DNA of 64,000 nucleotides from NCBI GenBank assembly GCA_049279635.1, contig JBAPOM010000092.1:60457-124456 (forward strand). Reading direction: 5' to 3'. A program made the translations under genes and the position numbers. The stretch comes from Candidatus Acidiferrales bacterium. Its GTDB lineage: Bacteria > Acidobacteriota > Terriglobia > Acidiferrales > UBA7541. Below the pieces are notes generated by a model. That model was not told the origin of the DNA. It did not search any database and saw only the letters and a list, made by a program, of their open reading frames with translations. This document shows positions 16,584 to 41,013 of this stretch, one piece after another. Numbering within the stretch: the first letter of the stretch is position 1; every line of letters begins with the position of its first letter.

Positions 16584-17441
16584 CTATTTCTTGTCGCCTG
16601 GTGGAGAAAGGGACGGTGCCGTCTTTCCTGGTTCGGCCGAATTCGCTGGTTCGCCGGCGGCGCCTGTCGGAGCCCCCGCTTCCGCTGTGCCGGCAGGTTT
16701 TGCGTCGCTCTCGCCCGGTTGTTGGTCCAGGTATTTCACAATCACCGAAATCCTGCGATTCGAAGGATCGAGCGGATTGGCGGGATCTCGTGGCAGCATA
16801 TCTGCAAAACCCCGCACCTCCGCCACTTGATCGGGGCGTACTCCGTGGGATTGCAGCAGGCGGCGGGCATCGTTGGCGCGATCGGTGGAGAGCTCCCAGT
16901 TCGTATAACCCGCACCGTTCGAATAGGGCTTGGCGTCCGTGTGGCCTTCCACGTAAATTTTGTTTGGAAGCTTTCCCAGTTCCGCCGCGAGCGCGAACAA
17001 AAGGTCCTGGCCGTCGACGTTGAATTTCGCGCTTCCTTGATTAAAAAAGGTTCCCGCCGCCGACTCGGTGAGTTCGATTCGCAAGCCTTCGTTGGTGACG
17101 GTCATGTCGATGTGATTTTTCAGCTTGTCGAAATCGGGTACCTTCTTCATCGCGGCTTGGAGCTGTTGCTTCAGCTGCTCCATGTTGTCTTTGGACACGA
17201 CGAAATTATCTTTCGCGCCCTGCATGTCGCTTCCGATTTTCTCGGCCTTGCCCGTAGGGTCCTTGAAATATCCTCCGACAGCCTTTTGAATTTTCTGGCT
17301 GCTGTTCATGAGCCAGAGCACGATGAAAAGCGCCATCATCGCGGTGACGAAGTCCGCGTAAGCCACCTTCCACGCGCCGCCATGGTGCCCGCCGTGTCCG
17401 GCCACTTTCTTGATGACGATAATCGGCCGTTTTCCCGTCAT
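16584..17441 (-). CDS. motB: MotB-type stator protein (OmpA-like peptidoglycan-binding C-terminus)
   Basis: GGAWKVAYADFVTAMMALFIVLWL, which contains the conserved Asp in the single TM helix. The OmpA-like region is VEGHTDAKPY...NWELSTDRAN. The C-terminal tail is Pro/Ala/Gly-rich. Confidence 0.85.
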   Translation of the reverse strand: MTGKRPIIVIKKVAGHGGHHGGAWKVAYADFVTAMMALFIVLWLMNSSQKIQKAVGGYFKDPTGKAEKIGSDMQGAKDNFVVSKDNMEQLKQQLQAAMKKVPDFDKLKNHIDMTVTNEGLRIELTESAAGTFFNQGSAKFNVDGQDLLFALAAELGKLPNKIYVEGHTDAKPYSNGAGYTNWELSTDRANDARRLLQSHGVRPDQVAEVRGFADMLPRDPANPLDPSNRRISVIVKYLDQQPGESDAKPAGTAEAGAPTGAAGEPANSAEPGKTAPSLSPPGDKK

Positions 17442-24138: not shown

Positions 24139-24282
24139 GAGGCCTCGATGATACCCGTTGCAGTCGCGATCCAATCTGTCGCGCGTAAGGTACAGACACC
24201 CTCAGCGAGAGTCAAATTGGATTCCTGCATCGAACGGATCGCTTTCCTCTGTTGTGTCTCGTCTTGATGCAGGCGGGCCGAA

Positions 24283-25731
24283 TCAGGAGTAGCGGAACAG
24301 CGCCTTGAAGCCGTAATCCATGTGCTGCTGAATGTGGCAGTGAAAAAGCGTCAAGCCGGGGTGGTCGGCGACCAAATCGACGGAAACGCGGCCGTAAAGC
24401 GGAACGATCACCGTGTCCTTGATTACGCCCGCGGTCTTCTTCCCGTTCACATCGACCAGCTCGAAAGAGTGCCGGTGAAAATGGAGCGGGTGCCCATCGT
24501 CCGTCCGATTGTGAAAGACAATCCGGTAGCGCGCGCCCTCCTTCAGGATAAATTCGCGATCGTGTGGATACTGCTTCCCGTTCACGAGCCACGCGTTGAA
24601 CTTTCCCGCTCCGCTCGGGATTTTCTCGAACACCATGTCGATCATCTCGTCGGGTGAAGGCTGCGTGCCCGCGCGCCCGAAGATCGTGTAGTCCCACGGA
24701 TTGTTCGGCGGCGCCAACCACTCCGGCTGCTTATGCTGATTTTCGTATTCGACCACCACGCCGAGCCCCGCGCCGCGAATCATGTCCTGCGTCGCGCCGA
24801 GAATCCATACGCCTGGCTGATTCATGTCGACGAACGCATCGATGCGTTCGCCGGGACCGAGCGTGAGGATGTCGGCCGGTCGAGGCGAAGGTACGGGATT
24901 GCCATCGAGGGCAAACACCTGAAATCGGTGCCCGGGCATCGCGATCGTGCGATTCTCGATGGCGCTCGCATTCAACAAATGGAAGAGAACGCGATCCCCC
25001 AGCCGCACGCGAATCGGCTCGCCCGATCCGAGCGCCTTGTCGTTGATCGAGAACATCTGCGACGTCACTTCGAGCCCATTCGGCCGCGTGTCGAGCACGG
25101 CCGGCTTCTCCGGCTGCGGCCCGCCTTGACCCTGCTCATCTGTGTCCATTTCTGCATTCGTAAAAAACGGCTCCCAATCGCGGATTGCGAGGAAAATCTC
25201 CTGATCGTAGTGGCCCGGATCTTTGCCCGAATCCACCACGAGAAATCCAAACTGCCCCGTGTAGGTGCCGCGATGGAGATCGTCATCCGCCATTGCGTGG
25301 CTGTGATACCAGCGCGTCCCGGCGGGCCGGGGAGTGAATTGATAGCGGCGCCGCCCGCGCGGCGGCACTGCCGGAGTGCCTTCTTCTTCTGCTCCATCCA
25401 CTTCCGACGGCAAAAACAGTCCATGAAAGTGCACGTATTCGGGCACATCCGTGTCGTTGATGGCGTCCACGGTCACCGGCAGGCCCTCGCGCATTCGTAG
25501 CAGCGGCCCGGGCGAGGTGCCGTTGTACCCGATCGTGCTGATGATGTAATTGGGCGTGAGTTCGACGGTCACCGGCGCGATGCGAATCGTGAAGTCGGCT
25601 GGCGTAGTCTCCGGCGGCGGGGAATTCGCCTGCATTCCCGGCATTTGGCCCTGCTGGGCGGGAAGCACCTTCGCCGCGCCAAGCTCGGCCGCAGCCGCGC
25701 CCGCCAGCTTCAGCAAATCCCTTCGCTTCAC
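24283..25731 (-). CDS. Tat-exported multicopper oxidase
   Basis: Tat leader MKRRDLLKLAG. All four copper motifs are present: HFHGLF, WYHSH, HPLHFHRH and HCHIQQHMDYGF. Confidence 0.9.
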   Translation of the reverse strand: MKRRDLLKLAGAAAAELGAAKVLPAQQGQMPGMQANSPPPETTPADFTIRIAPVTVELTPNYIISTIGYNGTSPGPLLRMREGLPVTVDAINDTDVPEYVHFHGLFLPSEVDGAEEEGTPAVPPRGRRRYQFTPRPAGTRWYHSHAMADDDLHRGTYTGQFGFLVVDSGKDPGHYDQEIFLAIRDWEPFFTNAEMDTDEQGQGGPQPEKPAVLDTRPNGLEVTSQMFSINDKALGSGEPIRVRLGDRVLFHLLNASAIENRTIAMPGHRFQVFALDGNPVPSPRPADILTLGPGERIDAFVDMNQPGVWILGATQDMIRGAGLGVVVEYENQHKQPEWLAPPNNPWDYTIFGRAGTQPSPDEMIDMVFEKIPSGAGKFNAWLVNGKQYPHDREFILKEGARYRIVFHNRTDDGHPLHFHRHSFELVDVNGKKTAGVIKDTVIVPLYGRVSVDLVADHPGLTLFHCHIQQHMDYGFKALFRYS

Positions 25732-25855
25732 GAATCCCCCAAAACACGCCCAAATTTCAACGCGTCAACGATCGGCAGCCATCAGCGCTCAAGATGCGCG
25801 CGTTTGGAAAGCATACATCAATCTGTTACGCTCTCCGGGCGCATCAGAGTATCTC

Positions 25856-26683
25856 ATGAAGCTTCTGCCAAGGCTTTCGGCGGTAGTTTCCCTCGTAGTG
25901 TTGGGCGGTGGTCTGCTAGCTCTCCGGTCGGATGCGCAATGGTACGGCTCAAGCCCCTTCGCGCCGGTCTCGCCCGAGCAAAGCCATGAAAAGGCTGAGT
26001 ATTCTTGGTCGCGGCTCAAGTACACCGCGGTCGCCCGCAGCTTTGGCGGTGGCTACGGCTATGGATACGGCTACGGTTTCGGGCGGGGAAGCTGGTCGCA
26101 GGACTATCCCAAGGCCGACCGGCAGTTCCTGCTCGCCTTGCGGCGCCTCACGCGCGTGAACGCCCGGTCCACCGAACAGGTGGTTGATCTCGATAGCGAC
26201 GACATTTTCAACTACCCGTGGGTCTACGCGGTGCAGGTCGAGAACTGGACGTTCACTCCGCCGGAAGCCAAGCGCCTCCACGACTACCTCCTCAAGGGCG
26301 GCTTTCTGATGGTCGACGATTTCCACGGCACTGCCGACTGGGAAAGCTTCATGAACGGAATGCGCATGGTTTTTCCCGACCGCCCCATCGAAGACTTGAA
26401 CAACAGCGACGAAATCTTTCACGTGCTGTACGACCTCGGCCAGCGCTTTCAGGTGCCGGGCGAGCAGTATGTCAACACCGGCCGCACGTACGAGAAAGAC
26501 GGCTACGTGCCCAAATGGCGCGCCATTCGCGACGACAAAGGCCGCATCATGGTCGCCATCTGCCACAACATGCATCTCGGCGATGCCTGGGAATGGGCCG
26601 ACAGTCCTGAATATCCGGAACGCTTCGCGTCGCTGGCGTTTCGTTTGGGAATCAATTATGTGATCTATGGAATGACGCACTGA
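25856..26683 (+). CDS. DUF4159-like secreted/membrane-anchored protein
   Basis: N-terminal hydrophobic segment. The core WSQDYPKADRQFL...FNYPWVYAVQ...LHDYLLKGGFLMVDDFHG matches my memory of DUF4159. The track ORF from 25550 overlaps the divergent MCO leader, so ATG 25856 was chosen. Confidence 0.7.
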   Translation: MKLLPRLSAVVSLVVLGGGLLALRSDAQWYGSSPFAPVSPEQSHEKAEYSWSRLKYTAVARSFGGGYGYGYGYGFGRGSWSQDYPKADRQFLLALRRLTRVNARSTEQVVDLDSDDIFNYPWVYAVQVENWTFTPPEAKRLHDYLLKGGFLMVDDFHGTADWESFMNGMRMVFPDRPIEDLNNSDEIFHVLYDLGQRFQVPGEQYVNTGRTYEKDGYVPKWRAIRDDKGRIMVAICHNMHLGDAWEWADSPEYPERFASLAFRLGINYVIYGMTH

Positions 26684-26738
26684 GGAAAGGATTCTTGGGG
26701 GCGGTCGAGGCGACACGGGGCTCAGGGTTCTCCAGAAC

Positions 26739-29000
26739 ATGTTTCAGTTTCTTTTCAAATATCCGGCCGCGATTTTTTCAAAGGGCCATTTCATACTGCT
26801 GGGCACTTGGCCCCGGTGGTCGCTGTGGCTGCTCGTCTTTGGGGCCGTGGCTGGGCTGGGATGGCTCGTGCGTTCGCGAATGGGGAAGGCGGCGCCGGGC
26901 GTTCGAAACTGGCGCGCGGGAATCATCTGGCTGCTGCAATCCGCTGTCGCCGCCCTGATACTTCTTCTGCTCTGGCAGCCGGCCATCACGGTCGCGGAGC
27001 TGAAGCCGCAGCAGAATATCATCGCCGTTTTGGTCGACGATTCGCGCAGCATGGCCATCGCCGATAACGGGACCACGCGGCAGGCGCAAGCCGTGAAGGC
27101 GCTCGATGGCGGCGTGCTCGCCGATTTGCAGAAACGATTCCAGACGCGCCTTTATAGCCTCGATAGCCGCGCCACTCGCATCCCCAGCCTCAACGCGCTC
27201 CAGCCTTCCGCTCCCGCCACGCGCATCGGCGACAGCCTCAAGCAATTGGTGGCGGAAACAGGCGATCTGCCGGTCGGCGCGATCATACTGCTCAGCGACG
27301 GCGCCGATAATTCCGGCGGCATCGATCTCGACACGATCTCAGCTCTACGCAACCGGCGCATTCCCGTCCACACGGTCGGCTTGGGTGCGGAAGAAGTGCC
27401 GCACGACGTCGAAATCGATGATGCGATCCTTGCACCGAAAGCGCTGGCGAATTCGCGGCTCGCCGCAACCGTCACCTTCCACCAGCGCGGCTACTCAGGC
27501 CAGAAAGCCACGCTCAACGTGCGCGACGGCGATAAAATGCTCGCATCGCAGCCAATCGAATTTGCCGGCGACGGCAAAATCCAGACCCAAAACGTCCTCT
27601 TCAGCGCCGGCGATGCGGGAGCGAAGACGCTCCAATTCTCAATCGACCCGCTGCCGGGCGAAACGAACCGCGCCAACAACGCTGTCACGCGCCTCGTGAA
27701 CGTCGTCAACGACAAGCGCCGCATCCTCTACGTCGAGGGCGAGCCGCGCTGGGAATACAAATTCATCCGCCGCGCGGTGGACGACGACAAGGTCGTCGAG
27801 ATCGCTTCGATGCTGCGCACCACCGAAAACAAGATCTATCGCCAGGGCATCGAGAATCCGAACGAACTCGCGGAGGGCTTTCCGTCGAAGCCGGAGGACC
27901 TCTTCGGCTATCAGGCGCTGATTATCGGCTCAGTCGAAGCCGGCTACTTCACGCCGGCCCAGCAGGATTTGGTCCGCCAGTTTGTCGACCGGCGCGGCGG
28001 CGGCCTGTTGTTTCTCGGTGGGCGGTTTGCGCTGGCTGACGGAGGCTGGGGCGGCTCGAATCTGGCGGATTTGCTGCCCACCATTCTGCCGAGCCACAAA
28101 AATACATTCCATCGCATCCCTGCCACGGTCCAACTGACTCCTGCCGGTGAAGACAGCCTGATTTGCCGCTTCATCGACGATCCCGCACGCAACGCGGAGC
28201 GCTGGAAAACGCTTCCATACCTCATGGACTATCAGGAGCCCGGCACGCCCAAGCCCGGCGCAACGGTCTTGGCCGAGATGCGAGCGGGTGGCGGCCGCGA
28301 CATGCCGCTGCTCGTCACGCAGAATTTCGGCCGCGGCCGCACCGCGCTGATGGCCACGTCCGGCACGTGGCGCTGGCAGATGAGCTTGCCGCTCGGCGAT
28401 ACGAGCCACACGATGTTTTGGCAGCAGCTCTTGCGCTGGCTCGTTGCGGATACGCCGAGCCAGGTCGTAATCTCCGTGCCCAGCCAGATGCTTTTTGACG
28501 ATGGCCACGTAAAATTGTCCGCGGACGTGCGCGACAAGAGCTACCTGCCCGCGCCCGATGCCACCGTCGAGGCGCATATCCTCGGACCCGGCGGTGTCGC
28601 CGCGACCGTCGAGATGACGCCGGTTCCCGACGCGCCCGGCACGTTCCAGTCCGATTGGAACGCCGAGAAGCCCGGCTCGTATCTCACCGAAGTGGTCGCG
28701 CAGCGCGGCGGACAGGAGCTCGGGCGGGACGTGCTGGCTTTTCAACGAATGGACGGCGTCGCCGAGAATTTCCATACCGAGCAGAACCGCGACCTCCTCG
28801 AAAAGCTTGCCTCCGAGACTGGCGGCCGCTACTGGACGCCTCAGGACGTTTCGAAGCTGCCGGGCGAAATCGCCTATTCCGAGGCCGGAATCACAGTGCG
28901 GGAAACGAAGCCACTGTGGGACATGCCGGCGATTTTTCTTTTGATTCTGGCGCTGCTTTTCGCCGAATGGCTGCTCCGCCGGAGATGGGGGATCGTGTGA
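26739..29000 (+). CDS. Membrane protein with VWA domain and glutamine-amidotransferase-like (GATase1-like) domain
   Basis: N- and C-terminal TM segments. MIDAS motif VLVDDSRSM (27036-27050). RILYVEGEPRWEYKFIRRAV and ALIIGSVEAGYF...GGGLLFLGG resemble the non-catalytic GATase1-like module seen in Bat-type clusters. Confidence 0.8.
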   Translation: MFQFLFKYPAAIFSKGHFILLGTWPRWSLWLLVFGAVAGLGWLVRSRMGKAAPGVRNWRAGIIWLLQSAVAALILLLLWQPAITVAELKPQQNIIAVLVDDSRSMAIADNGTTRQAQAVKALDGGVLADLQKRFQTRLYSLDSRATRIPSLNALQPSAPATRIGDSLKQLVAETGDLPVGAIILLSDGADNSGGIDLDTISALRNRRIPVHTVGLGAEEVPHDVEIDDAILAPKALANSRLAATVTFHQRGYSGQKATLNVRDGDKMLASQPIEFAGDGKIQTQNVLFSAGDAGAKTLQFSIDPLPGETNRANNAVTRLVNVVNDKRRILYVEGEPRWEYKFIRRAVDDDKVVEIASMLRTTENKIYRQGIENPNELAEGFPSKPEDLFGYQALIIGSVEAGYFTPAQQDLVRQFVDRRGGGLLFLGGRFALADGGWGGSNLADLLPTILPSHKNTFHRIPATVQLTPAGEDSLICRFIDDPARNAERWKTLPYLMDYQEPGTPKPGATVLAEMRAGGGRDMPLLVTQNFGRGRTALMATSGTWRWQMSLPLGDTSHTMFWQQLLRWLVADTPSQVVISVPSQMLFDDGHVKLSADVRDKSYLPAPDATVEAHILGPGGVAATVEMTPVPDAPGTFQSDWNAEKPGSYLTEVVAQRGGQELGRDVLAFQRMDGVAENFHTEQNRDLLEKLASETGGRYWTPQDVSKLPGEIAYSEAGITVRETKPLWDMPAIFLLILALLFAEWLLRRRWGIV

Positions 29001-29938
29001 AGGCCGCGCTTCTCGCCGTCTGCCTCGCGGCCGCGCTGCTGTTCGCCGTCCCCGCGCGCGCGGCGGTCTATTACGTCACGGTCGCGGGCCTCGGCGGCGA
29101 GCCGGATTACGAGCAGGAATTCACTTCTCTCGCGACGGACCTCGACAAGCTGCTCAAAGCTTCAGGCAGCGATGTCCACGTCTATACGCTGACCGGGAAG
29201 GATGCGACTCGCGCTAATCTGACTGAGACGCTCAGCAAAGTCGCGAGCGAGGCGAAACCGGACGATGATTTTGTACTCACCCTGATCGGCCACGGTTCCT
29301 TCGACGGCTTCGAATACAAGTTCAATCTTCCGGGCCCCGATATTTCCGCCGCGGACCTCGCCGTCCTTTGCGACCACGTACCCGCCAGGCGCCAATTGAT
29401 CGTCAATACCACAAGCGCCAGCGGAGGTTCGGTGGCAGCGCTCGAAAAGCACGGCCGCGCCGTGATTGCCGCCACGAAGAGCGGCACCGAGAAGAACGCC
29501 ACCGTTTTCGCGCGTTATTGGGTGCAGGCGCTGCACGATCCGGAAGCCGATGTGGATAAGAACGACGCCATCTCCGCCCTCGAAGCGTTCCGCTACGCCA
29601 CAAGCCGCACGGCTGAGTTTTACGACGCCCAAAAGCGCCTGGCCACCGAGCATGCTGAGTTCGAAGACACAGGCTTGCACGATCCGGTGCGCGAGGCGTC
29701 CACCGATACCGGCGAGGGGTTGCTGCTTTCGAGCTTCACCCTGATTCGCCTCGGCGCCGCGCAGAAGGCATACGCCGACCCTGCCAAAAGGGCCTTGCTC
29801 GCGCGTAAGGAAGAACTCGAGCAGCAAATCGACACGTTGAAATATCAGAAGGCCGCGATGGCCCAGGACGATTACAGAAGCCAGCTCACGGCCGCCCTGA
29901 TCGAGCTGGCGAAGGTGGAGGAGGAACTCGACAAGTGA
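28985..29938 (+). CDS. Secreted clan-CD (legumain/caspase)-like fold protein lacking the catalytic Cys, with C-terminal coiled coil
   Basis: Signal peptide LLAVCLAAALLFAVPARA. A His-Gly dyad (LTLIGHGSFDG, His codon at 29291) is present. The position expected for (D/E)xCxSG reads NTTSASGGS (29408-29428). The start overlaps the upstream stop (ATG 28985 or GTG 28997). Confidence 0.55.
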   Translation: MGDRVKAALLAVCLAAALLFAVPARAAVYYVTVAGLGGEPDYEQEFTSLATDLDKLLKASGSDVHVYTLTGKDATRANLTETLSKVASEAKPDDDFVLTLIGHGSFDGFEYKFNLPGPDISAADLAVLCDHVPARRQLIVNTTSASGGSVAALEKHGRAVIAATKSGTEKNATVFARYWVQALHDPEADVDKNDAISALEAFRYATSRTAEFYDAQKRLATEHAEFEDTGLHDPVREASTDTGEGLLLSSFTLIRLGAAQKAYADPAKRALLARKEELEQQIDTLKYQKAAMAQDDYRSQLTAALIELAKVEEELDK

Positions 29939-32142
29939 CGCGCGCACGCCAATGCGCGATTTTGTCCGCGATGCTGCTGACCGCGGGAAGCGCCGTCGCG
30001 GCGGCGACGCCCGACGATTGCCATGCGCTAGGCAAGCACGGGCATCGCGCCGAGGCGCAGGCTTGCTACGAATCGCTCACACGCGCGCGCGATCCCTACC
30101 TCCGCGCGGAAGGCAATTGGGGCCTCGGAAATTACACGGACGCGAACAATGAATTCCGCGCAGCCGTGGCCCAGTCCGACGACAACGCGCTCTATCGCGT
30201 CCGCTGGGGACTCCTCCTCCACGAGCGCTTCAACAACACCGACGCCGAGGGCCTCTTCAAGGAAGCGCTGCAACGGGATCCGAAGAATGCGCAAGCCCAT
30301 CTCGGCCTCGCGCTCGTCAGCGAAGACGGCTACGACAACAACGCGATCGTCTGGGCCACCAAGGCGCTCGAACTCGATCCCAAACTCGTGGCCGCGCACG
30401 AGCTCCTCGCCGAGATCGCGCTCGAGGATTCCGATACGGCTCAGGCCATCGCGCAGGCGGACGAAGCCATTAAGCTCGCGCCCGACGCGCTCGATGCAAT
30501 GGCGGTCCACGCCGCCGTCGAAGTGCTGGCTGATCGCTCGCCGGACTCGTGGTTCGCAGAGACCGCGCGGATCAATCCCATATACGGCGAGGCCTACGCG
30601 ATCGTCGCCCGTAATCTCGTTCTTCATAATCGCTACGAAGACGCGGTCGCCGACTATCGCAAGGCCGTCGAGCTCGATCCGCAGCTCTGGTCCGCGCGCT
30701 CCGAGCTCGGCATCAACCTCATGCGCCTCGGCCAGGAAGACGAGCCGCGCCGCCAGCTCGAAATGTGCTACGACAACGGCTACCGCAACGAGGCCACCGT
30801 CAACACGCTTCGTCTCCTCGATAGCTACAAGAATTTCGTCATCTTTAAGGACGCCACGACGATCATCAAGCTCAATGAAAAAGAAGCCGACCTGCTGCAT
30901 CCCTACGTCGAAGAAATCCTGAAGCGCGCGATGGCGACCTACGAGAAGAAATACAAAATGACGCTGCCCGGCCCCGTGCAGGTCGAGGTCTATCCTGACC
31001 ATGAAGATTTCGCGGTTCGCACCACAGGCATGCCGGGCCTCGGCGCGCTCGGCGTCACATTCGGCATGGTTGTCGCGATGGACAGCCCTTCGGGCCGCCA
31101 GCCCGGCGACTTCAATTGGGCGAGCACGCTGTGGCACGAGATGAGCCACGTCTACATTCTCACCGCCACCAATCACCGCGTCGCGCGATGGTTCACCGAA
31201 GGTCTCGCGGTTCACGAAGAGACGCAGGCATCGCCCGAGTGGGGCGACCCGATCACGCCCGACATCGTCGCCGCGTTGCGCGATAAGAAGCTCCTCCCCG
31301 TCGCCGATCTCGATCGCGGCTTCATTCGTCCCGAGTATCCCGCGCAGGTCATCGTCTCCTACTACCAGGCGGGCCGCATCTGCGATTACATCCAGGACCG
31401 CTGGGGTGCCGACAAGCTGCTCGATATGGTCCACTCATACGCCGCGTTGAAGGCTACGCCCGAGGTGATTCAGGAAAATCTCGGCACGACGCCCGAGGAG
31501 TTCGACAAGGAATTTCAGGCGTGGCTCTACAAGGGTGTTCAGCAGACCGTCGACAATTTCGACAAGTGGCGCGAAGCGCTGAAAGCCCTGGCGCAGGCGG
31601 CGAAAGCGGACAACTCCGATGAAGTGCTGAAAGACGGCGACGCAGTCGTCCAAATGTACCCGCAGTATGTCTATGCCGCGAATGCCTACGAATTCATTGC
31701 CGAAGCCGATCTCGCGAAGGGCAACAAGCCGGCCGCGGCCGCCATCCTTACCGAATACGAAAAGCAAGGTGGCCGCGATCCGGAAGCGCTGAAGCAACTG
31801 GCAACGCTCGAAGAAGGCCTCAGCGAGCCGAAAGAAGCGGCTGCCACGCTCGACCGTCTCAACTGGATCTACCCGATGGACGAAGACCAGCATCGCCATC
31901 TCGGCCAGCTCTGGCTCGCCCAAAATAATTACACGGGCGCGATCCGCGAATACTCGTCCGTGCTCGCCCTGCACCCTCTCGATCGCGCTTCGGCGCAATT
32001 CGATCTGGCGCAGGCTTACTTCGACGACGGCCAGAAGGACAAGGCGGAAGACAACGTCCTCCAGGCGCTCGAAGCCGCTCCCGATTATCGCCCGGCCCAG
32101 AAACTACTCTTGCAGCTCCAAGGTTCCGAGAAAGGAAAATAG
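29935..32142 (+). CDS. Secreted TPR-repeat protein with gluzincin-like HExxH metallopeptidase motif
   Basis: Signal peptide present. TPR-like N-terminal and C-terminal halves. LWHEMSHVY (HEMSH at 31135-31149) is followed by FTEGLAVHEE. The start overlaps the upstream stop (GTGA). Confidence 0.75.
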   Translation: MTRARQCAILSAMLLTAGSAVAAATPDDCHALGKHGHRAEAQACYESLTRARDPYLRAEGNWGLGNYTDANNEFRAAVAQSDDNALYRVRWGLLLHERFNNTDAEGLFKEALQRDPKNAQAHLGLALVSEDGYDNNAIVWATKALELDPKLVAAHELLAEIALEDSDTAQAIAQADEAIKLAPDALDAMAVHAAVEVLADRSPDSWFAETARINPIYGEAYAIVARNLVLHNRYEDAVADYRKAVELDPQLWSARSELGINLMRLGQEDEPRRQLEMCYDNGYRNEATVNTLRLLDSYKNFVIFKDATTIIKLNEKEADLLHPYVEEILKRAMATYEKKYKMTLPGPVQVEVYPDHEDFAVRTTGMPGLGALGVTFGMVVAMDSPSGRQPGDFNWASTLWHEMSHVYILTATNHRVARWFTEGLAVHEETQASPEWGDPITPDIVAALRDKKLLPVADLDRGFIRPEYPAQVIVSYYQAGRICDYIQDRWGADKLLDMVHSYAALKATPEVIQENLGTTPEEFDKEFQAWLYKGVQQTVDNFDKWREALKALAQAAKADNSDEVLKDGDAVVQMYPQYVYAANAYEFIAEADLAKGNKPAAAAILTEYEKQGGRDPEALKQLATLEEGLSEPKEAAATLDRLNWIYPMDEDQHRHLGQLWLAQNNYTGAIREYSSVLALHPLDRASAQFDLAQAYFDDGQKDKAEDNVLQALEAAPDYRPAQKLLLQLQGSEKGK

Positions 32143-32145
32143 CCG

Positions 32146-33174
<1,029 letters not shown>

Positions 33175-33175
33175 C

Positions 33176-34063
33176 GTGCAGCGTTTTCTCGATCCAGCGG
33201 TGCTTGCGCGTATCTCGGGCCTCGACCTCGTCGCCAAGACGGTCGTCGACGGCTTCGTCGCAGGCCTTCACCGCTCGCCCGATTTCGGTTTCAGCCAGGA
33301 GTTCGCCGAGTACCGCGCCTACACGCCCGGTGATGATCTGCGCCACGTCGATTGGAACGTCTTCGCACGTACCGAGCGCTGCTACCTCAAGCGCTATCGC
33401 GGCGAGACCAACAGCCTGCTCACCGTCCTGCTCGACGCGAGCAACTCCATGAATTTTTCATCCCACGGCGTGAGCAAAATGGACTACGCGCGATTCATCG
33501 CGGCGTCGCTCTTCCATCTCGCGATTCACAATCAGCGCGACGCAGCCGGCCTGATCGTCTTCGATGATGAAGTGCGCAACTACATTCGCCCCTCCACGCG
33601 CCAGGGCCAGCTCCACCGTCTGCTCAGCGGCCTCGAACTCGCCGAGCCCCGCGCCCGCACCGACTTCAGCAAGCCGCTGCACCATTTCCAGGAATTTCTC
33701 AGGCGTCGCGGGCTGGTGCTGATCATCTCCGATTTCTTCGAAACGCCCGAGACGATCGTGCGCACTATCGAGCCGCTGCATTTCCACGGCAATGAAGTCG
33801 TCCTGTTTCATGTCCTCGACCCGAAAGAAATTCAGCCGCAGCTCGACGCGCCCGTGATCCTCGTCGACCTCGAAACCAAAGAGCGCCTCGAAGTCACTCC
33901 CGAATACGCGCGCGATGAATATCGCCCCAAAATGGATGCGCACATCGCGGACCTCCGCAGCCGCGCGCAGGGCGCTGGAATGGATTATTTCGTGCTCTCG
34001 ACCGATCGCCCGCTCGATGAAGCGCTCGCCGAATATCTCTCGATCCGGCAGCGGAGGAACTAG
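33176..34063 (+). CDS. DUF58 domain protein (MoxR partner)
   Basis: YRAYTPGDDLRHVDWNVFARTERCYLKRY is the hallmark DUF58 motif. The GTG start is 1 nt after the MoxR stop. Confidence 0.85.
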   Translation: MQRFLDPAVLARISGLDLVAKTVVDGFVAGLHRSPDFGFSQEFAEYRAYTPGDDLRHVDWNVFARTERCYLKRYRGETNSLLTVLLDASNSMNFSSHGVSKMDYARFIAASLFHLAIHNQRDAAGLIVFDDEVRNYIRPSTRQGQLHRLLSGLELAEPRARTDFSKPLHHFQEFLRRRGLVLIISDFFETPETIVRTIEPLHFHGNEVVLFHVLDPKEIQPQLDAPVILVDLETKERLEVTPEYARDEYRPKMDAHIADLRSRAQGAGMDYFVLSTDRPLDEALAEYLSIRQRRN

Positions 34064-36085
34064 ATGGGCCTCCTCGCTCCATGGTTTCTCGCAGGAGCAG
34101 CGGCGCTGGCCGTGCCGCTTTATCTGCATCTGCTGCGCCGGCACACGTCGGATCCGCAGCCATTCAGCTCGCTGATGTTTTTCGAGCAGCGGACGCAAAG
34201 CTCGATCAAGCATCGCCGTCTCCGCTATCTCTTGCTGCTAGCGCTGCGGCTCAGTCTGCTTGCGCTGCTGGTCCTCGCCTTTGCCGGCCCGTTCATCAAT
34301 CGCCCCGCCGTCAGCGCAGCCAATGACAAGCTCCTCATGCTTGTGATCGACAATTCCTTCAGCATGCGTGCCGGCTCGCGCCTCGCCGACGCGAAGCGCG
34401 CGGCGCAATCCTTGCGGGCTTCACGGAATCCCGCCGAGCGCGCGCAGGTGATGGCGCTCGGCTCGCAGTTGCAAGTCCTCACGCAGCCGACGCAGGATGC
34501 CGCCACGCTTACCGCCGCCGTCAATAGCATCGAGCCCGGCGATTCGCGCGGTAGTTTCGCCGAACTGGCGCGCGCGCTTCGTTCCGCGGCGCAGAGCATG
34601 TCGGCCCCGATCGAGCTGCATTTCTTCAGCGACATGCAGAAGTCCGACATGCCGGCGAATTTCGCCGATGCGGTTCTGCCCAACAACGTTTTGCTGATCC
34701 TGCATCCCGTGGTGAAGAGCAACGTACCCAATTGGGCAGTCGAAAGCGTGAACGCCCCCGGCCAGGTCTGGGACGTGAAGAAGGCCCGCGTTCAGGCCGT
34801 AATCGCGGGCTACGGCACTCCCGCCGCCACGCGCACAGTTTCGCTCATCATCAACGGCAAAACGGCCGCCACGCGCACCGTCGCCGTGCCCGCCGCGGGC
34901 CGCGCCACCGTCGAATTCGATTCGCTCGACGTGCCGCACGGCTTCAGCCGCTGCGAGGTGCGCATCGATTCCGCCGACGCACTGCCGGCCGACGACGTGA
35001 GCCGCTTCGCCGTCGAGCGCTCCGATCCGCAAAAGGTGTTGTTCCTTCACGAATCGGGCGACACGCGCTCGCCTCTGTATTTCAGCGCCGCGCTCGCCGC
35101 TGCCGCCGAATCCGCATTCACGATGGACAGCATTCCCGTCGCCCAAGCGGCGAACGTGCGGCCACAGGATTATGCTTTCGTCGTTCTTTCCGACGCGGTT
35201 TCGCTGCCGTCTTCGCTCGAAAATGAACTCGCGCGCTACGTCCGCGCCGGAGGCAGCGTCCTCGTAGCCGCCGGCACAGCCGATGGCGCGCGCCAGCGTA
35301 TCGCCGTGTTCGACGCAAACGTGCTCAAGGCCAATTACTACACGAGCGCGGGCGGCTTCGCTCAGACGGTCGGCGATACGGACCCATCCTATCCTTCCAT
35401 CGGGAAAGCCGATCGATGGTCCGGCGTCAAAATCTATTATGCGGTGAAAGTTGAGGACACCGGCTCGCGCGTCGTAGCGCGCCTTACCGACCAGACCCCG
35501 CTGCTCCTCGAGAAGCAAATCGGCGAAGGCCGCGTCCTGCTGTTCGCTTCCGGCCTCGACAATCTCACCAACGATTTCCCTTTGCATCCCGATTTCGTCC
35601 CGTTCGTCGAGCAGACGGCCTTCTATCTTTCAGGCACCGCCCGCCGCACCGGATCGCGCCTCGTTGATTCGTTCATTGATCTGCGCACCAGCAAAGAGGA
35701 AGCGGTAAGCGTGGAAGTGATTGACCCACAAGGCCGGCGCCCGCTCTCGCTCAAGGAAGCGGCCAACGCGCAAACCTACCAGGTGACCCAGGCGGGCTTC
35801 TACGAGCTGCGCCTGGCGAATGGCCGCCAGGACGTGATCGGTGTCAATCCCGACCGCCGCGAATCCGATCTTGACGTGCTGCCGCCCGATGTCCTCTCCC
35901 TATGGACCGGGAAGAACGCTACGGAGCCGGGCACCCAGGCCGCCACCGCGGCGCCCGGCCCCTCAGAAGATAAAAGCAAACCGTACGGCCTATGGTGGTA
36001 CGTTATGCTAGTGGCATTGGCGGCGGCACTGTGCGAGTCCTGGGTGGCCAGCCGGTACCTGGGGATTCGACGGGAGGATTCATGA
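34064..36085 (+). CDS. BatA-N (aerotolerance regulator N-terminal, double-TM) protein with VWA-like MIDAS and C-terminal TM anchor
   Basis: MGLLAPWFLAGAAALAVPLYLHLLRR, MIDAS-like LMLVIDNSFSM, and C-terminal YGLWWYVMLVALAAALC. The start directly abuts the DUF58 stop. Confidence 0.8.
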   Translation: MGLLAPWFLAGAAALAVPLYLHLLRRHTSDPQPFSSLMFFEQRTQSSIKHRRLRYLLLLALRLSLLALLVLAFAGPFINRPAVSAANDKLLMLVIDNSFSMRAGSRLADAKRAAQSLRASRNPAERAQVMALGSQLQVLTQPTQDAATLTAAVNSIEPGDSRGSFAELARALRSAAQSMSAPIELHFFSDMQKSDMPANFADAVLPNNVLLILHPVVKSNVPNWAVESVNAPGQVWDVKKARVQAVIAGYGTPAATRTVSLIINGKTAATRTVAVPAAGRATVEFDSLDVPHGFSRCEVRIDSADALPADDVSRFAVERSDPQKVLFLHESGDTRSPLYFSAALAAAAESAFTMDSIPVAQAANVRPQDYAFVVLSDAVSLPSSLENELARYVRAGGSVLVAAGTADGARQRIAVFDANVLKANYYTSAGGFAQTVGDTDPSYPSIGKADRWSGVKIYYAVKVEDTGSRVVARLTDQTPLLLEKQIGEGRVLLFASGLDNLTNDFPLHPDFVPFVEQTAFYLSGTARRTGSRLVDSFIDLRTSKEEAVSVEVIDPQGRRPLSLKEAANAQTYQVTQAGFYELRLANGRQDVIGVNPDRRESDLDVLPPDVLSLWTGKNATEPGTQAATAAPGPSEDKSKPYGLWWYVMLVALAAALCESWVASRYLGIRREDS

Positions 36086-39000
36086 GCGCGCGGGAACAGC
36101 TCAACTCCTACATCAGTCAGGTCGAGAAACGCCTGCGCCTTGGCACTGCCGCGCGCGGTGCGGCCATCCTCACGCTCGCTGCGCTTGTCACCACCGTTGT
36201 CCTAGTTCTGATCGCGAATTACTTTGGCTTCTCCCAGGCGAGTCTCGCTAGCGCGCGCGCCATTCTCGTCCTCGCGCTGCTTGCCGCCCTCGTTTACGCT
36301 CTTGCGCTCCCGCTGCTCTATCTCGACCGTCAGAGCGCGGTCGGCAAAGCGGAAAGCGCCTTCCCGAAATTCAAGCAGCGCCTGATCACATTCGCCGAAC
36401 GCGATCCCCGCGCCCCGGATGCCGATGCCCGCGAGCCTTTCATCGAGTTGCTTGCCGCCGACACCCTCGAAATCGCGCGCGGCTCCGAACCGAAAGCGCT
36501 CGTGCCTCAGCGCACGCTGCTCGTCTTCAGCGGCGTCCTCGTTGCTTCCCTCGGTGTACTGATTTGGCTGGTTGCCGCCGGCCCCGGCTATCTCGGCTAT
36601 GGCGCCTCGCTGCTGTGGATGGGCGCCCGCACGGGCGCCACGCCTTTCTACGATATTCGCGTCAGCCCGGGCGATGCCTCCGTGCGCCGCAATGCGGATG
36701 AACTTGTCACCGCGCAGCCCATCGGCCTGCAGACCGACAAGATGCGCCTCTACGCGCGCTATGAGAGCGCGTCGAAATGGGAGCAGGTCGCGATGCAGCC
36801 GCAGTCTGGCGGCTCCGGCTTCCAATTTCTCTTCGCGGGACTTCCCGAGGCGGTCGAATACTATGTCGAGGCGGGGCCGATTCGCTCGCGCCATTACAAG
36901 ATTCGTGTGGTCGATCTCCCAGGTGTGAAGCAGATTCGCGTCACCTATCGCTACCCGTCGTGGACCGGCCTGCGCAACACGGTTGACGAGCACGGCGGCG
37001 ATTTGCACGCGGTCGAAGGCACGGTCGCCAATCTCGAAGTCCTCACCGACCGCCCGCTTCGCGATGGACTGCTCGTCCTTGACGACGGCCAGCAGATCCA
37101 GCTCACGCCCGGCGCGAATGGCGCGGACCACTACACCGGTTCGGTCAGCATGGCCAAGGACGGCAGCTACCATGTCGCCGCCGTCGATCAGGGCCAGCCC
37201 GTTCGCCTCTCCGAGGATTTCTTTATCGAGGCGGACAAAGCCAATCCGCCGCAGGTCGAGGTCACGCGGCCGGCGCGCGATTATCGCGCCAGTCCCATCG
37301 AAGAAGTCACGATCGCGGCGAATGCCAACGATCCTTTCGGCGTCGATGCCATGACCCTGCACTATTCCGTGAATGGCGGCGCCGAGCAGACGGTGAATTT
37401 GCTGAAGCGAAAAGGCGCGAAAGACGCGGATGGCTCGACCGTGCTCTCTCTCGAAGATTTCAAGCTTGTCCCAGGCGATCTTGTAAGCTTCTACGTCACC
37501 GCCAAGGACGCGCGCGCTGAGGCGCACACGGACATTTTCTTCATCCAGGCCGATCCTTTCGAGCGCGATTTCTCGCAGTCGCAATCCGCTGGAGGTGGTG
37601 GCGGAGGAGGCGGGCAGGGCAATCAGAACGATATCTCCGAGCGCGAAAAGGAGATCATCGCGCAGACCTGGAAGCAGCGCGGCGATAAGAACGCGGCCGC
37701 GCAGCAGGCTGCCGAAGCAGGAAAATTCCTTTCCGAGGTGCAGTCGAAGCTGCGCGATCAGGCCATCGCGCTGGCCGGCCGCCTGCAGTTGCGCGACCTC
37801 AACACTGAGAACGAGGAGTTCAATTCCTTTCAGCAGGATATGAATGCGGCAGCGCAAGCGATGAATCCGGCCGCGGATCAGCTTCGCAAGCAGAAATGGG
37901 ACGAGGCGCTTCCGAGCGAGCAGAAAGCGCTGCAGCATTTGCTGCAGGCGGAAGCCACGTTCCGCCAGATTCAGGTGGCGTTCGGCAATAGCGGCGGAGG
38001 CGCTGGCGGCGGAGGTGCGGGCCGCGATCTCGCGAGCCTCTTCGATCTCGAACTCGACACGCAGAAGAATCAGTACGAAACCGCGCAGACAGCCTCCTCT
38101 GCCGATGAGAAGCAGAAGGAAATCGACGACGCGCTGAAGAAGCTCGACGAGCTCGCGCGCCGCCAGCAGGATCTTGCGAACCAGTCGCAAAACAGCAATC
38201 AGAGCTTCCAGCAGCGCTGGCAGCAGGAAATGCTGCGCCGCGAAGCGGAAAAATTGCAGCAGCAGATGGAGCAGCTCGCGCAGCAGCAGTCGCAACAAAA
38301 TGGCCAGCAATCGGGTCAGTCATCTTCGGGACAATCGTCGTCCGGGCAATCTTCCTCGGGTCAATCGCAATCTCAGGGCGGCGCTTCGGGTTCTTCGGGC
38401 GCCGATTCGCGCGAACAGCGCGTGCAGCAAGCCCTCGAACAGCTCCGCCAGGCGAATCAGGATATGCAGCGCGCGCAGCAAAATCAGGACAGCGCCGAGG
38501 CGCGCCGCGCCGCCCAGCGCCTCCGCGATGCCACGAATCTTCTCGGCAGCATGCAGCAGCAGCAAGCCTCGGGACGCCTTGATTCGATGGCCAGCGAAGC
38601 CGACCGCCTCGCCGCCGAACAGCGCGATCAGGCCGACCGCATGCGCAAGCTGCTCAGCGACGCGAGCTCGCCAGACGAGTCGGGCCAGGCTCCGCAGGAT
38701 CTCTGGAATCAGGCCAGCAAGCTCGCTCGGGACCGCCAGCAACTCGCGGACGATCTGGCGAGTCTCGAAAAGCAAGCTCGCGACGCGGCGCGCGATCTCG
38801 CCTCGACGCAGCGCGGCGCCGCTTCGAAGCTGCGCGACGCCCTCGGCAATCTCGATCAGGAAGATTTACAGACGCGCCTGCAGCGAAGCGCGGATTGGCT
38901 CCGCCGCGGCATCGCTCCCAATTCGCTCGCGGCGGAACAGGGGATCACGTCTGATCTGCAGCGCTTCGGCGATCAGGTGAGGCAAGCCCAGCAGGCGCTG

Positions 39001-39747
39001 GGCGCCGGACAACAGCAGGATCAAGGGCAAGATGCGCAGGCCGCCATCGACCGCCTCGAGCGTCTGCGCAATCAAATGGCGGGCATCACGCGCGATATGG
39101 GTGCGGCGGGCCGGCCCGGTCAGCAGGGAAGCGGCCAAAATCGCAATGGTCAAAATGGCGAAGCCGGCCAGCTCCCGCAGAATGGCCAGCCCGGTCAAGC
39201 CTCCGGCCAAAATGGTGGAAGGCTCAGTCGCAACGGCGGCCCGGACGGTGGCCCAGCCGGCGGTCCCGCCAGCGGCCAAGTCGGCGACGATTACACCCGA
39301 GGCTACGGCCAACGCTACGGCGGCGCGCGAGGCGGCAACAACAATTGGTGGATCGACACCGGCAACAATTCCAATCTGCCGCAGCCCGTCGGCCCCGACA
39401 ATTCGCCGCTGCCGCCCGACCCCGAGCGTTCCTACCAGCAAAGTCTCGACGGCCTGAATCAACTCCGCCCAACCGTCGAGAACGATCCCGATACCGCGCG
39501 CGAATTGCAGGAACTGATTCGCGAAATGCAGCAGCTCGATCCGAAGCGTTTCCCCGGCAATCCAGCGCTCTTCGAGCAGCTCCACACGCAAGTGCTCAAC
39601 GACGTCGACAAGCTCGAGCTGCAACTGCAGCGCAAGCTCGACGACAAGCAGTCGGGCCAGATTCGCAGCGCCAATCCGATGCCGATGCCCGCCGGATATC
39701 AGGACGCCGTCGCCGATTATTTCCGCCGCCTCAGCAAAAATCCGTAG
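36082..39747 (+). CDS. Large (1221 aa) membrane-anchored protein with Gln-rich coiled-coil/low-complexity C-terminal half (possibly DUF4175-like)
   Basis: ATGA overlap with the upstream gene. Three N-terminal TM helices, then a beta-rich middle. A Gly8 run lies at 37591-37614. Roughly 650 aa of Q/A/R-rich heptad-like sequence and Q/N/G-rich tracts follow. The protein ends in YQDAVADYFRRL. Confidence 0.75.
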   Translation: MSAREQLNSYISQVEKRLRLGTAARGAAILTLAALVTTVVLVLIANYFGFSQASLASARAILVLALLAALVYALALPLLYLDRQSAVGKAESAFPKFKQRLITFAERDPRAPDADAREPFIELLAADTLEIARGSEPKALVPQRTLLVFSGVLVASLGVLIWLVAAGPGYLGYGASLLWMGARTGATPFYDIRVSPGDASVRRNADELVTAQPIGLQTDKMRLYARYESASKWEQVAMQPQSGGSGFQFLFAGLPEAVEYYVEAGPIRSRHYKIRVVDLPGVKQIRVTYRYPSWTGLRNTVDEHGGDLHAVEGTVANLEVLTDRPLRDGLLVLDDGQQIQLTPGANGADHYTGSVSMAKDGSYHVAAVDQGQPVRLSEDFFIEADKANPPQVEVTRPARDYRASPIEEVTIAANANDPFGVDAMTLHYSVNGGAEQTVNLLKRKGAKDADGSTVLSLEDFKLVPGDLVSFYVTAKDARAEAHTDIFFIQADPFERDFSQSQSAGGGGGGGGQGNQNDISEREKEIIAQTWKQRGDKNAAAQQAAEAGKFLSEVQSKLRDQAIALAGRLQLRDLNTENEEFNSFQQDMNAAAQAMNPAADQLRKQKWDEALPSEQKALQHLLQAEATFRQIQVAFGNSGGGAGGGGAGRDLASLFDLELDTQKNQYETAQTASSADEKQKEIDDALKKLDELARRQQDLANQSQNSNQSFQQRWQQEMLRREAEKLQQQMEQLAQQQSQQNGQQSGQSSSGQSSSGQSSSGQSQSQGGASGSSGADSREQRVQQALEQLRQANQDMQRAQQNQDSAEARRAAQRLRDATNLLGSMQQQQASGRLDSMASEADRLAAEQRDQADRMRKLLSDASSPDESGQAPQDLWNQASKLARDRQQLADDLASLEKQARDAARDLASTQRGAASKLRDALGNLDQEDLQTRLQRSADWLRRGIAPNSLAAEQGITSDLQRFGDQVRQAQQALGAGQQQDQGQDAQAAIDRLERLRNQMAGITRDMGAAGRPGQQGSGQNRNGQNGEAGQLPQNGQPGQASGQNGGRLSRNGGPDGGPAGGPASGQVGDDYTRGYGQRYGGARGGNNNWWIDTGNNSNLPQPVGPDNSPLPPDPERSYQQSLDGLNQLRPTVENDPDTARELQELIREMQQLDPKRFPGNPALFEQLHTQVLNDVDKLELQLQRKLDDKQSGQIRSANPMPMPAGYQDAVADYFRRLSKNP
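38311..38370 (+). repeat. Imperfect 15-nt tandem repeat (x4) encoding SGQSS-SGQSS-SGQSS-SGQSQ
   Basis: The four units are tcgggtcagtcatct, tcgggacaatcgtcg, tccgggcaatcttcc and tcgggtcaatcgcaa. The first three units differ only at synonymous positions. Confidence 0.7.
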
Positions 39748-39928
39748 TCTCGCGCCGCGCGATTTCGGCCGAATTTTCTGCTCCGCCGGGCGCAACAATG
39801 TTGCTGCCGTCGGGGGCTTAACCGGCCTCTAACCAGCCAAGAAAAGCCAAATTTGGCGGCTTCTTGCGTTGTAAACTTTGTCTCGCCTCGTTTCGAGGCC
39901 TCATCTGCTTTCGAATCATGGAGGTGCA

Positions 39929-41005
39929 ATGCGGTTCACGTCGAAGTGTATCTTGCTGGCCCTGGCTTTGATGCTTCCGTCCACTTGCCTTCTCCGGGCA
40001 CAGGGCACCCCGCCTCCAATTCCGATCCACGTGAAGGTGGTCGTCGTAAATATGTTTGAAGCGGGCAACGATACTGGCGATCGCCCCGGCGAATACCAGC
40101 TCTGGGTCGAGCGCGAGCACCTCGATCAGATTTTGCCGCTTCCCGCGGGCTATCACCACGTGCGCATGAACAAAGACGGCGTGCTCGGCCTGCTCACCGG
40201 CGTAGGCACGGCGCGCGCGGCCGCATCCGTGATGGCGCTGGGCCTCGACCCGCGCTTCGATTTCTCGAAAGCCTACTGGATCGTCGCCGGAATCGGCGGC
40301 GGCGATCCGGCGGACGTCTCGCTCGGCTCGGCGGTCTGGTCGGATCATGTGGTCGATGGCGATCTCGCGTACGAAATCGACGCGCGCGAAATTCCCAAGG
40401 ATTGGCCCACCGGCTACGTTCCGTTGCAGCACGCGACGCCTTACGAGCAGCCCGTGCGGCAAGGCGCCACCGGCGAAATCTACACGCTTAACCCAGGCCT
40501 CGTCGGCTGGGCCTTCGGGCTTACGCGCAACGTCCCACTCGCGGATACCGACGGAATACGCGCGTACCGCGCACGCTTCACCGGATTTCCCAATGCGATG
40601 AGGCCGCCGTTCGTTACGCGCGGCGACAACATGTGCGGCAGCACCTTCTGGCACGGCACGCTGATGGACCAATGGGCGAATGCCTGGGTGAGCTATTTCA
40701 CCGGAGGGAAAGGCAACTTCATGGTCTCGGCGATGGAAGATACGGGCACGCTCCAGTCGCTCACGTTCCTCAGCCACGCTGGGCGCGTCGATTTCAATCG
40801 CGTGCTCGTCCTGCGCACGGTAAGCAACTACGATCGCGAGCCTCCCGGCTCGACGCCCGCCGAAAGCCTCGCGCAGATGGCGAAAGGCAACTACCCGGCG
40901 TACATGGAGTCACTCGAGGCGGCGGAAACGGTGGGAGACAAGGTCGTTCGCGATATCGTCGAACATTGGAGCGACGGCGAGAAGAATATTCCTTCGGCGC
41001 CTTAG
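39929..41005 (+). CDS. NUP-family ('purine nucleoside permease') protein with signal peptide
   Basis: MRFTSKCILLALALMLPSTCLLRAQG leader behind GGAGGTG. VVVVNMFEAGNDTGDRPGEYQLWVERE and GIGGGDP resemble the PF06516 family as I remember it. Confidence 0.75.
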   Translation: MRFTSKCILLALALMLPSTCLLRAQGTPPPIPIHVKVVVVNMFEAGNDTGDRPGEYQLWVEREHLDQILPLPAGYHHVRMNKDGVLGLLTGVGTARAAASVMALGLDPRFDFSKAYWIVAGIGGGDPADVSLGSAVWSDHVVDGDLAYEIDAREIPKDWPTGYVPLQHATPYEQPVRQGATGEIYTLNPGLVGWAFGLTRNVPLADTDGIRAYRARFTGFPNAMRPPFVTRGDNMCGSTFWHGTLMDQWANAWVSYFTGGKGNFMVSAMEDTGTLQSLTFLSHAGRVDFNRVLVLRTVSNYDREPPGSTPAESLAQMAKGNYPAYMESLEAAETVGDKVVRDIVEHWSDGEKNIPSAP

Positions 41006-41013
41006 CCGCAGCG

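Follow-up and report, generated by a model that had tools for sequence, protein, structure and literature searches.

We analysed a 64,000-nucleotide (nt) stretch of a Candidatus Acidiferrales genome (Acidobacteriota, Terriglobia; contig JBAPOM010000092.1, positions 60,457 to 124,456; referred to here as the window), in which eight forward-strand genes, g1 to g8, follow one another around the gene for a MoxR AAA+ ATPase. We read this block as a cell-envelope operon that has been passed on vertically and that enlarges on the related Bat and cmd clusters, which combine MoxR, DUF58 and BatA_N proteins; its likely role is in envelope integrity or stress. We put the probability of this reading at roughly 60%, and have much less confidence in the specific mechanistic steps discussed below than in the general statement. 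The eight-gene operon is real and is present in at least three bacterial phyla. Its new part is the linkage of the MoxR core to a legumain-fold protein (g3), a TPR/zincin protein (g4) and a giant DUF4175-related protein (g8), while the core itself is already known. The genes, as given by the map of open reading frames (ORFs) and their translation, are:

25856–26683, forward strand: g1, DUF4159 protein, 275 amino acids (aa)
26739–29000, forward strand: g2, VWA/GATase1_like membrane protein, 753 aa
28985–29938, forward strand: g3, legumain-fold protein, 317 aa
29935–32142, forward strand: g4, TPR/zincin protein, 735 aa
32146–33174, forward strand: g5, MoxR AAA+ ATPase, 342 aa
33176–34063, forward strand: g6, DUF58 protein, 295 aa
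34064–36085, forward strand: g7, BatA_N/VWA membrane protein, 673 aa
36082–39747, forward strand: g8, DUF4175-related giant protein, 1221 aa

Gene order and conservation of the block

An earlier note on this DNA had described eight forward-strand genes, with their coordinates and lengths, and a series of junctions running from a 55-nt gap to a 4-nt overlap. ORF listing and translation reproduced the genes, and all of the junctions were recovered exactly: from g1 through g8 they are +55, -16, -4, +3, +1, 0 and -4 nt. The median junctions from g2 through g8 in the Terriglobia loci described below are -16, -4, +3, +2, -1 and -4 nt (extrapolated distances). From this spacing we infer that the block is translationally coupled. 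The translation start of g3 may be the GTG at 28997 instead of the ATG at 28985, which would give a 4-nt GTGA overlap with g2; the database copy of g3 has 313 aa. A hydropathy scan gave signal or transmembrane (TM) segments in g1–g4, g7 and g8 and none in g6. The block does not differ from its surroundings in base composition.

Conservation was assessed in a scan of one genome per species with a six-sequence alignment of g3 as query, which matched at least 599 species. The best 80 of these, all Terriglobia with g3 identities of 67–94%, formed the locus set, and their gene content was read by tblastn with the eight window proteins. The order g2-g3-g4-g5-g6-g7-g8 is kept in 80/80 of these loci, wherever the contig reaches, and the close homologues are named Candidatus Acidiferrales or Terriglobia. 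The block is near-universal in the sampled soil Terriglobia and so probably matters for the envelope biology of this dominant soil group.

Loci outside Acidobacteriota were obtained by a profile search with distant g3 homologues and by reading of their contigs. A Gemmatimonadaceae metagenome-assembled genome (L081) has genes for GATase1_like, g3, TPR/Peptidase_MA_2, DUF4159, MoxR, DUF58, BatA/VWA and DUF4175 proteins, and Gemmatirosa kalamazoonensis KBS708 carries g2-g3-g4-g1-g5-g6-g7-g8 on a 1.1-Mb replicon; at least one carrier is therefore in culture. Two gammaproteobacterial loci (L082 and L083, one with lptD-surA-pdxA neighbours and one on a contig named Gammaproteobacteria) keep the order without the DUF4159 gene. 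Three further metagenomic lineages (L084, L087, L088) have DUF4159 before g2 and again between g4 and MoxR, and the layout in a fourth is identical to that of the window. The flanking genes are unlike from case to case among the Gemmatimonadota, the Gammaproteobacteria and the other distant loci. The occurrence of the same block among unrelated flanks in distant lineages indicates that g2–g4 and g8 have been conserved together with the MoxR core and did not enter as insertions in single lineages. The suspicion, voiced in the earlier note as a possible objection, that the extra genes might be such insertions was not borne out in Acidobacteriota, Gemmatimonadota or Gammaproteobacteria.

Predicted properties of the eight proteins

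The MoxR/DUF58/BatA_N-VWA core had been proposed from the translations, and all three domain families were matched in Pfam. The g5 protein matches AAA_3 (PF07726; E 5.5e-60, 201 bits against a cut-off of 27) and AAA_lid_2 (55 bits), as well as the MoxR structure 2R44 (E 7.8e-78), and is 59–66% identical to its orthologues in other phyla. Walker A, GLPGTAKT at residue 60, occurs in 70/70 orthologues, and the window protein has Walker B, DEIN, at residue 127. One borderline internal hydrophobic segment (231–249, score 1.69 in the hydropathy scan) probably belongs to a helix buried in the lid domain and does not, in our reading, span the membrane. The adjacent g6, which starts 1 nt after g5, encodes the VWA-type partner of MoxR. 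It matches DUF58 (E 1.2e-43) and also VWA_2 and VWA_CoxE, and its metal-ion-dependent adhesion site (MIDAS) motif is DASNS at residue 87, with DxSxS in 70/70 orthologues. Both g5 and g6 are predicted to be cytoplasmic.

Judged by profile comparison, g2 and g7 are remote paralogues with one plan: a double TM segment, a VWA domain, a GATase1-like/DUF7408 region and a C-terminal TM segment. BLASTP between the two is not significant, while hhalign of the orthologue alignments gives a probability of 97.7% and E 1.6e-12 over 463 columns. The g7 protein matches BatA_N (E 7e-16; 58.8 bits against 25.9), VWA_2 (E 5e-13) and TIGR02226 (E 4.6e-17), and weakly DUF7408 and GATase1_like; its MIDAS motif is DNSFS at residue 96, and DxSxS is present in 66/66 orthologues. 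The g2 protein passes the GATase1_like cut-off of 27 bits with a score of 29 but reaches the threshold of no Pfam VWA model, so that its VWA domain is seen only through the DxSxS motif (DDSRS at residue 100; 76/76 orthologues) and the profile homology to g7. Hydropathy places TM segments at 60–78 and 728–746 in g2, and in g7 a BatA_N double TM segment at the N-terminus and a TM helix at the C-terminus. Both proteins are predicted to be anchored at both ends in the inner membrane with their bulk in the periplasm. A basic loop joins the two BatA_N helices and the C-terminal tails are rich in Arg, which suggests that the VWA domains are periplasmic, in agreement with experiments on the Borrelia BatA_N protein BB0173, in which the VWA domain faces the periplasm (PMC5700661).

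The third gene encodes a protein, predicted to be secreted, with a confidently modelled legumain/caspase fold; it has lost its thiol nucleophile and is strongly constrained. The window protein matched no Pfam family, and its N-terminus is signal-like in the hydropathy scan. The AlphaFold2 (AF2) model, built from a 46-sequence alignment, has a predicted local distance difference test score (pLDDT) of 94.5, and Foldseek relates it to legumain, MALT1 and caspases with probability 1.00 and E down to 1.4e-8. The family profile finds metacaspase-4 (E 1.7e-4) and also the bacterial caspase-like GSU0716. In the alignment to metacaspase-4, GHG corresponds to the catalytic His and TSASG to the DSCHSG motif of the Cys. 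His103 is present in 352/352 family members. At position 145, the nucleophile site, the 353 members have Ala (282), Ser (59) or Cys (6), and the window protein has Ala145; Ala or Ser stands in place of the nucleophile in about 98% of the family. Ser144, Ser146, Gly147, Asp189, Glu200, Glu222 and His223 are invariant or nearly so, and the C-terminus is a pair of long helices. The protein thus resembles the clan CD peptidases (legumain, C13; caspases and metacaspases, C14) in fold and in the Gly-His-Gly motif of the catalytic His and differs from them in lacking the catalytic Cys, much as had been supposed from the translation. It would serve to bind other molecules as a subunit, or else be an enzyme whose chemistry has changed.

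Some g3 homologues have weak precomputed matches to Peptidase_C13 (PF01650), and the NCBI name of one is 'C13 family peptidase'. We found no description of the g3 family. It is a large group of secreted legumain-fold proteins, with 2,548 clusters at 50% identity (E 0.001 or better).

The g4 product is predicted from its motifs to be a secreted zinc peptidase flanked by TPR repeats. Pfam finds TPR families on both sides of the zincin domain and Peptidase_MA_2 (33.7 bits against a cut-off of 32.4), and the N-terminus is signal-like. The HExxH motif, which had already been picked out in a putative secreted TPR protein, is HEMSH at residue 401. H401, E402, H405 and E422 are present in 72/72 orthologues, including those of Gemmatimonadota and Gammaproteobacteria, and E422 is the presumed third ligand of the zinc. 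For the peptidase domain the PDB gave no solved relative. Escherichia coli BepA, a periplasmic zinc metallopeptidase of family M48 with a TPR domain, acts in the quality control of outer-membrane proteins. It resembles g4 in joining a secreted zincin to TPR repeats in an envelope context, by an analogy compared on the zincin motif, and differs in family (M48 as against Peptidase_MA_2) and in not being linked to MoxR.

The AF2 model of residues 1–523 of g8 (pLDDT 83) has three TM helices, helices at 83–132 and three beta-sandwich domains at 191–490, which Foldseek relates to tandem Ig/FN3 structures. The protein is accordingly modelled, with the caution due to a prediction, as an inner-membrane protein with a cytoplasmic helical insert of about 60 aa and three periplasmic Ig/FN3-like domains. 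A tail of about 730 aa follows that is Q/A/R/G-rich, helical and disordered, with 18% Gln over residues 493–1000 and 27% Gly over 1001–1110. TM helices, model and composition agree with the description of a membrane-anchored, Q-rich giant given from the letters. DUF4175 (PF13779) is matched by the window protein in two collinear weak partial matches, at 21.4 bits against a gathering score of 27.3, and by 30/45 orthologues at E 0.01 or better (best E 3.6e-15). As in DUF4175 proteins of the alphaproteobacterial TIGR02302 type and in Acinetobacter baumannii AdvA, N-terminal TM helices are followed by a long Gln/Gly-rich region; g8 differs from them in its sub-gathering score, in matching no NCBIfam model and in its three Ig-like domains. 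AdvA is essential for cell division, and DUF4175 makes up its N-terminal region (PMC7481262).

The database homologues of g8 (P0389–P0508) are for the most part 500–900 aa long and labelled 'partial', which suggests that the repetitive Q/G-rich half often breaks assemblies or gene calls and that the full-length family is under-represented.

The first gene is an accessory of the block that recurs but changes its place; its product is predicted to be secreted and to have a fold like that of class-I glutamine amidotransferases. The protein matches DUF4159 (PF13709, E 4e-46), its nearest solved relative is 4I66, and its N-terminus is hydrophobic and signal-like in the hydropathy scan. Comparison by hhalign gave no similarity between g1 and g2 or between g1 and g7. 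The DUF4159 gene lies before g2 (Terriglobia), between g4 and MoxR (Gemmatimonadota), in both places, or is absent, and its distance from g2 is 55 nt in the window and 2–5 kb in some Terriglobia loci. Residues ~64–80 of g1 (window 26045–26095) form a short Gly/Tyr repeat (GGGYGYGYGYGFGRG) directly before the DUF4159 domain.

Relation to known MoxR clusters and alternative readings

The claim that the block is an undescribed system does not wholly hold. A cluster within locus L090 (2628766–2649677 of Sinorhizobium meliloti CP090106.1) consists of MoxR, DUF58, a 937-aa BatA_N…DUF4159 protein and a VWA/GATase1_like protein; judging by the annotation, we take it to be the counterpart of Rhizobium leguminosarum cmdA-D (RL3499–RL3502). 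Five domain families (AAA_3, DUF58, BatA_N, DUF4159 and GATase1_like) occur in one cluster there as in the window. The g5 protein is 46% identical to its MoxR, g7 matches the product of its third gene at E 9e-5, and tblastn relates g2 to its fourth gene at E 7e-6 over the VWA part and E 6e-14 over the GATase1-like part. The alphaproteobacterial cluster differs in having four genes with MoxR first, as against eight genes with MoxR fifth, in the fusion of DUF4159 (in the window a separate secreted protein) to the BatA_N protein, and, in S. meliloti, in the absence of a legumain-fold, a TPR/zincin or an adjacent DUF4175 gene. Because this cluster contains them, nothing new has been added by the DUF4159, GATase1-like VWA and BatA_N proteins. 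Of the 'unusual extra components' that had been proposed, what stands is the linkage of g3, g4 and g8, and in the searchable literature we found no description of a MoxR/DUF58/BatA_N core linked to a legumain-fold, TPR-zincin or DUF4175 protein.

Two peculiarities of the S. meliloti record may be added: the fourth cluster gene (L090 ~14672–16740), which the gene table does not list, is interrupted near 15262 by a change of frame, and CP090106.1 is labelled pSymB in the plasmid collection, yet at 3.72 Mb is chromosome-sized.

The description 'Bat-like' is apt in part. The Bat operons of Bacteroides fragilis (BatI), Leptospira and Borrelia (bb0170–bb0176) share with the window MoxR, DUF58, BatA_N/VWA proteins and a TPR protein, and it is in MoxR, DUF58 and BatA_N that the likeness stands. 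It does not extend to BatD and BatE: with Pfam searched to E 0.01, neither BatD (PF13584) nor an SH3 domain (BatE-type) was matched in the eight proteins. The scores on the Leptospira BatA and BatC models are far below the cut-offs. The NCBIfam model VWA_BatA_Lepto matches only g2 (20 bits against a cut-off of 380) and not g7, and TPR_BatC_Lepto scores 20.5 bits against 175 with g4. MoxR and DUF58 stand at the head of the Bat cluster, whereas g1–g4 precede g5 and g6. BatA and BatB have about 330 aa, as against 673 and 753 aa for the VWA proteins of the window, which carry a GATase1-like domain and a C-terminal anchor, and BatC is a stand-alone TPR protein whereas the TPR protein g4 also carries a zincin domain.

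By analogy with cmd and Bat mutants, the physiological role of the block is likely to be in envelope integrity and stress tolerance. Mutants of Rhizobium cmdA-D have envelope and morphology defects, according to the passage of PMC5700661 that cites Vanderlinde 2011. Clusters of MoxR, DUF58 and BatA proteins occur in many phyla, and their mutants have envelope, stress or virulence phenotypes. To our knowledge, no molecular function has been assigned to these clusters in more than 20 years. The variant described here adds readable biochemistry to them, in the form of a peptidase whose active site is predicted to be intact, a protein of peptidase fold lacking the nucleophile, and a low-complexity giant.

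The suggestion of a MoxR-driven multi-protein envelope assembly is a reasonable one to make from the genes alone. In such an assembly the membrane proteins g2, g7 and g8 would be remodelled or activated by MoxR and DUF58 at the expense of ATP; the pair might contact them through small cytoplasmic parts, namely the BatA_N basic loop and the helical insert of about 60 aa in g8. The periplasmic MIDAS sites would bind acidic ligands. The g4 peptidase may process a periplasmic component, most obviously the tail of g8 with its many Q, N and G residues, and g3 could serve as a non-catalytic substrate-holding or regulatory subunit. A bolder version, which we regard as speculative and distinctly improbable, is an undescribed ATP-dependent envelope machine in which g3 and g4 capture and process the Asn/Gln/Gly-rich tail of g8, displayed by the g2 and g7 anchors, and whose product is a scaffold or gel that fills the periplasm and that MoxR/DUF58 cause to be built or renewed. 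If true, this would explain for the first time how clusters of the Bat/cmd class as a whole work.

Several points weigh against reading the block as an envelope-integrity operon that acts as one system. This variant of the block is known here, for any organism, from its genes alone, and that it forms one operon and one complex is deduced from gene linkage. In some relatives, junctions that are normally 0–4 nt contain inserts of 100–640 nt, and inserts of this hairpin type imply that strict translational coupling is dispensable. The DUF4159 gene is missing at both gammaproteobacterial loci (L082, L083). The topology was deduced from simple hydropathy, from the positive-inside rule and from experiments on a single homologue, that of Borrelia, and the mode of action of a cytoplasmic AAA+ ATPase on mostly periplasmic partners is a gap in the scheme. 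The substrate proposed for g4 and the role proposed for g3 are guesses. Leptospira Bat mutants have no oxidative-stress phenotype (PMC3557215), so that the phenotypes of related clusters are inconsistent.

The same genes could instead serve the maturation of a metal cofactor, the client being either the multicopper oxidase encoded next to the block, a Tat substrate, or the zinc peptidase g4, as in NorQ/NorD, CoxD/CoxE and CbbQ/CbbO. MoxR/VWA pairs are described as ATP-driven maturation factors in those parts of PMC8926400 that cite Snider & Houry 2006 and Tsai 2020, and as a matter of general knowledge, summarised in the same paper, metal maturation is their best-known role. RavA-ViaA, CbbQ-CbbO, NorQ-NorD and CoxD-CoxE resemble g5/g6 in placing a MoxR ATPase next to a cytoplasmic VWA protein with an intact MIDAS; g6 matches VWA_CoxE, the oxidase has a twin-arginine signal, and in most Terriglobia loci its gene keeps company with that for DUF4159, also where both are displaced from g2. 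These systems, however, are two-gene modules with a defined enzyme client, whereas the window has six more envelope proteins and no evident client. The oxidase is missing from the Gemmatimonadota, gammaproteobacterial and other distant loci that keep the rest of the block, known MoxR clients mature in the cytoplasm, and a chaperone–client pair does not explain three large membrane proteins and a 1221-aa Q-rich protein. We consider this function unlikely. It is also distinctly unlikely, in our view, that the block is not one system and that g1, g2-g3-g4 and g5–g8 are adjacent, functionally separate units that are merely syntenic. Such a division would fit the recurrent breakpoint at g4|g5 (146–636 nt in Acidobacteriaceae, and the site of the inserted DUF4159 gene in Gemmatimonadota), the position of g1, 55 nt off and sometimes 2–5 kb away, and the fact that neither g3 nor g4 nor a neighbouring DUF4175 gene is needed in the alphaproteobacterial cluster. 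It accords poorly with the adjacency and common direction of g2–g4 and g5–g8 in every locus examined, in three phyla and among unrelated flanks. Moreover, the paralogues g2 and g7 would fall into different units, the one upstream and the other downstream, and g2 has a homologue in the alphaproteobacterial cluster that begins with MoxR, namely its fourth gene.

An inducible defence against phage or interbacterial toxins, like Pseudomonas aeruginosa Arc2 or the MoxR-vWA conflict systems, we judge very unlikely. Arc2 (PA4317-23) has a MoxR-like ATPase and a von Willebrand factor (VWF) protein and protects against the pore-forming type VI secretion system toxin ColA (PMC8926400), and g5 also matches the bpMoxR model (35 bits). 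The likeness to Arc2 lies in MoxR and VWF content, with homology compared for MoxR at most. A PADLOC-DB search of the components gave two marginal matches, neither convincing: g3 matched 'caspase' weakly (E 2e-4), a point in favour of defence, and the other match was mad8 (E 8e-4). Against defence, g3 lacks the nucleophile, the block has no beta-propeller or effector partner, and its class-wide synteny, vertical conservation and flank-like base composition are unlike the patchy distribution of genes in a defence island. With no support from PADLOC, the defence reading was set aside.

Flanking genes and minor observations

The features next to the block in the window are:

24283–25731, reverse strand: multicopper oxidase with a twin-arginine (Tat) signal, divergent upstream neighbour
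25732–25855: divergent intergenic region between the oxidase gene and g1, presumed promoter region of the block
39878–41005, forward strand: secreted purine nucleoside permease (PF06516, E 1.9e-110)
41014–42405: amidohydrolase, convergent, after the permease gene

The co-directional permease gene begins some 130–180 nt downstream of g8. A long minus-strand ORF at 39818–40777, considered as a convergent downstream gene, is Arg-rich and spurious, the real gene being the forward-strand permease. A sigma-70 consensus scan of the region upstream of g1 gave no promoter-like site, a consensus that says little for an acidobacterium, and in a consensus scan terminator-like sites were at chance level only. 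An Rfam search of 24000–41500 gave no RNA element, and a repeat search within the block no meaningful repeats.

The multicopper oxidase gene adjoins the DUF4159 gene in most Terriglobia loci, and the two stay together, in changed relative orientation, when both are displaced 2–5 kb upstream of g2 (loci cited for the linkage: L028, L034, L037, L040, L045, L051 and L055). The linkage was not found in the Gemmatimonadota or gammaproteobacterial loci examined.

Inserts at the gene junctions of relatives were located as follows:

L070, 9819–9985 and 14202–14362: junction inserts
L080, 1430–1568: junction insert
L040, L045 and L055: inserts at several junctions
L068–L076: inserts at g4|g5
L002 and L003: inserts at g6|g7

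Several of these have long, nearly perfect inverted repeats, and one element occurs at two junctions of one operon and is shared between genomes. They look like hairpin elements of the miniature inverted-repeat transposable element (MITE) or repetitive extragenic palindromic (REP) type that target intergenic junctions.

In L087 (4831–6516 and 15431–16033) a DUF433/PIN toxin-antitoxin pair lies between the MoxR and DUF58 genes, and g4 is split into two genes. The same locus has genes for a TPR-SLT lytic transglycosylase and a MotA/ExbB protein just upstream of the operon.

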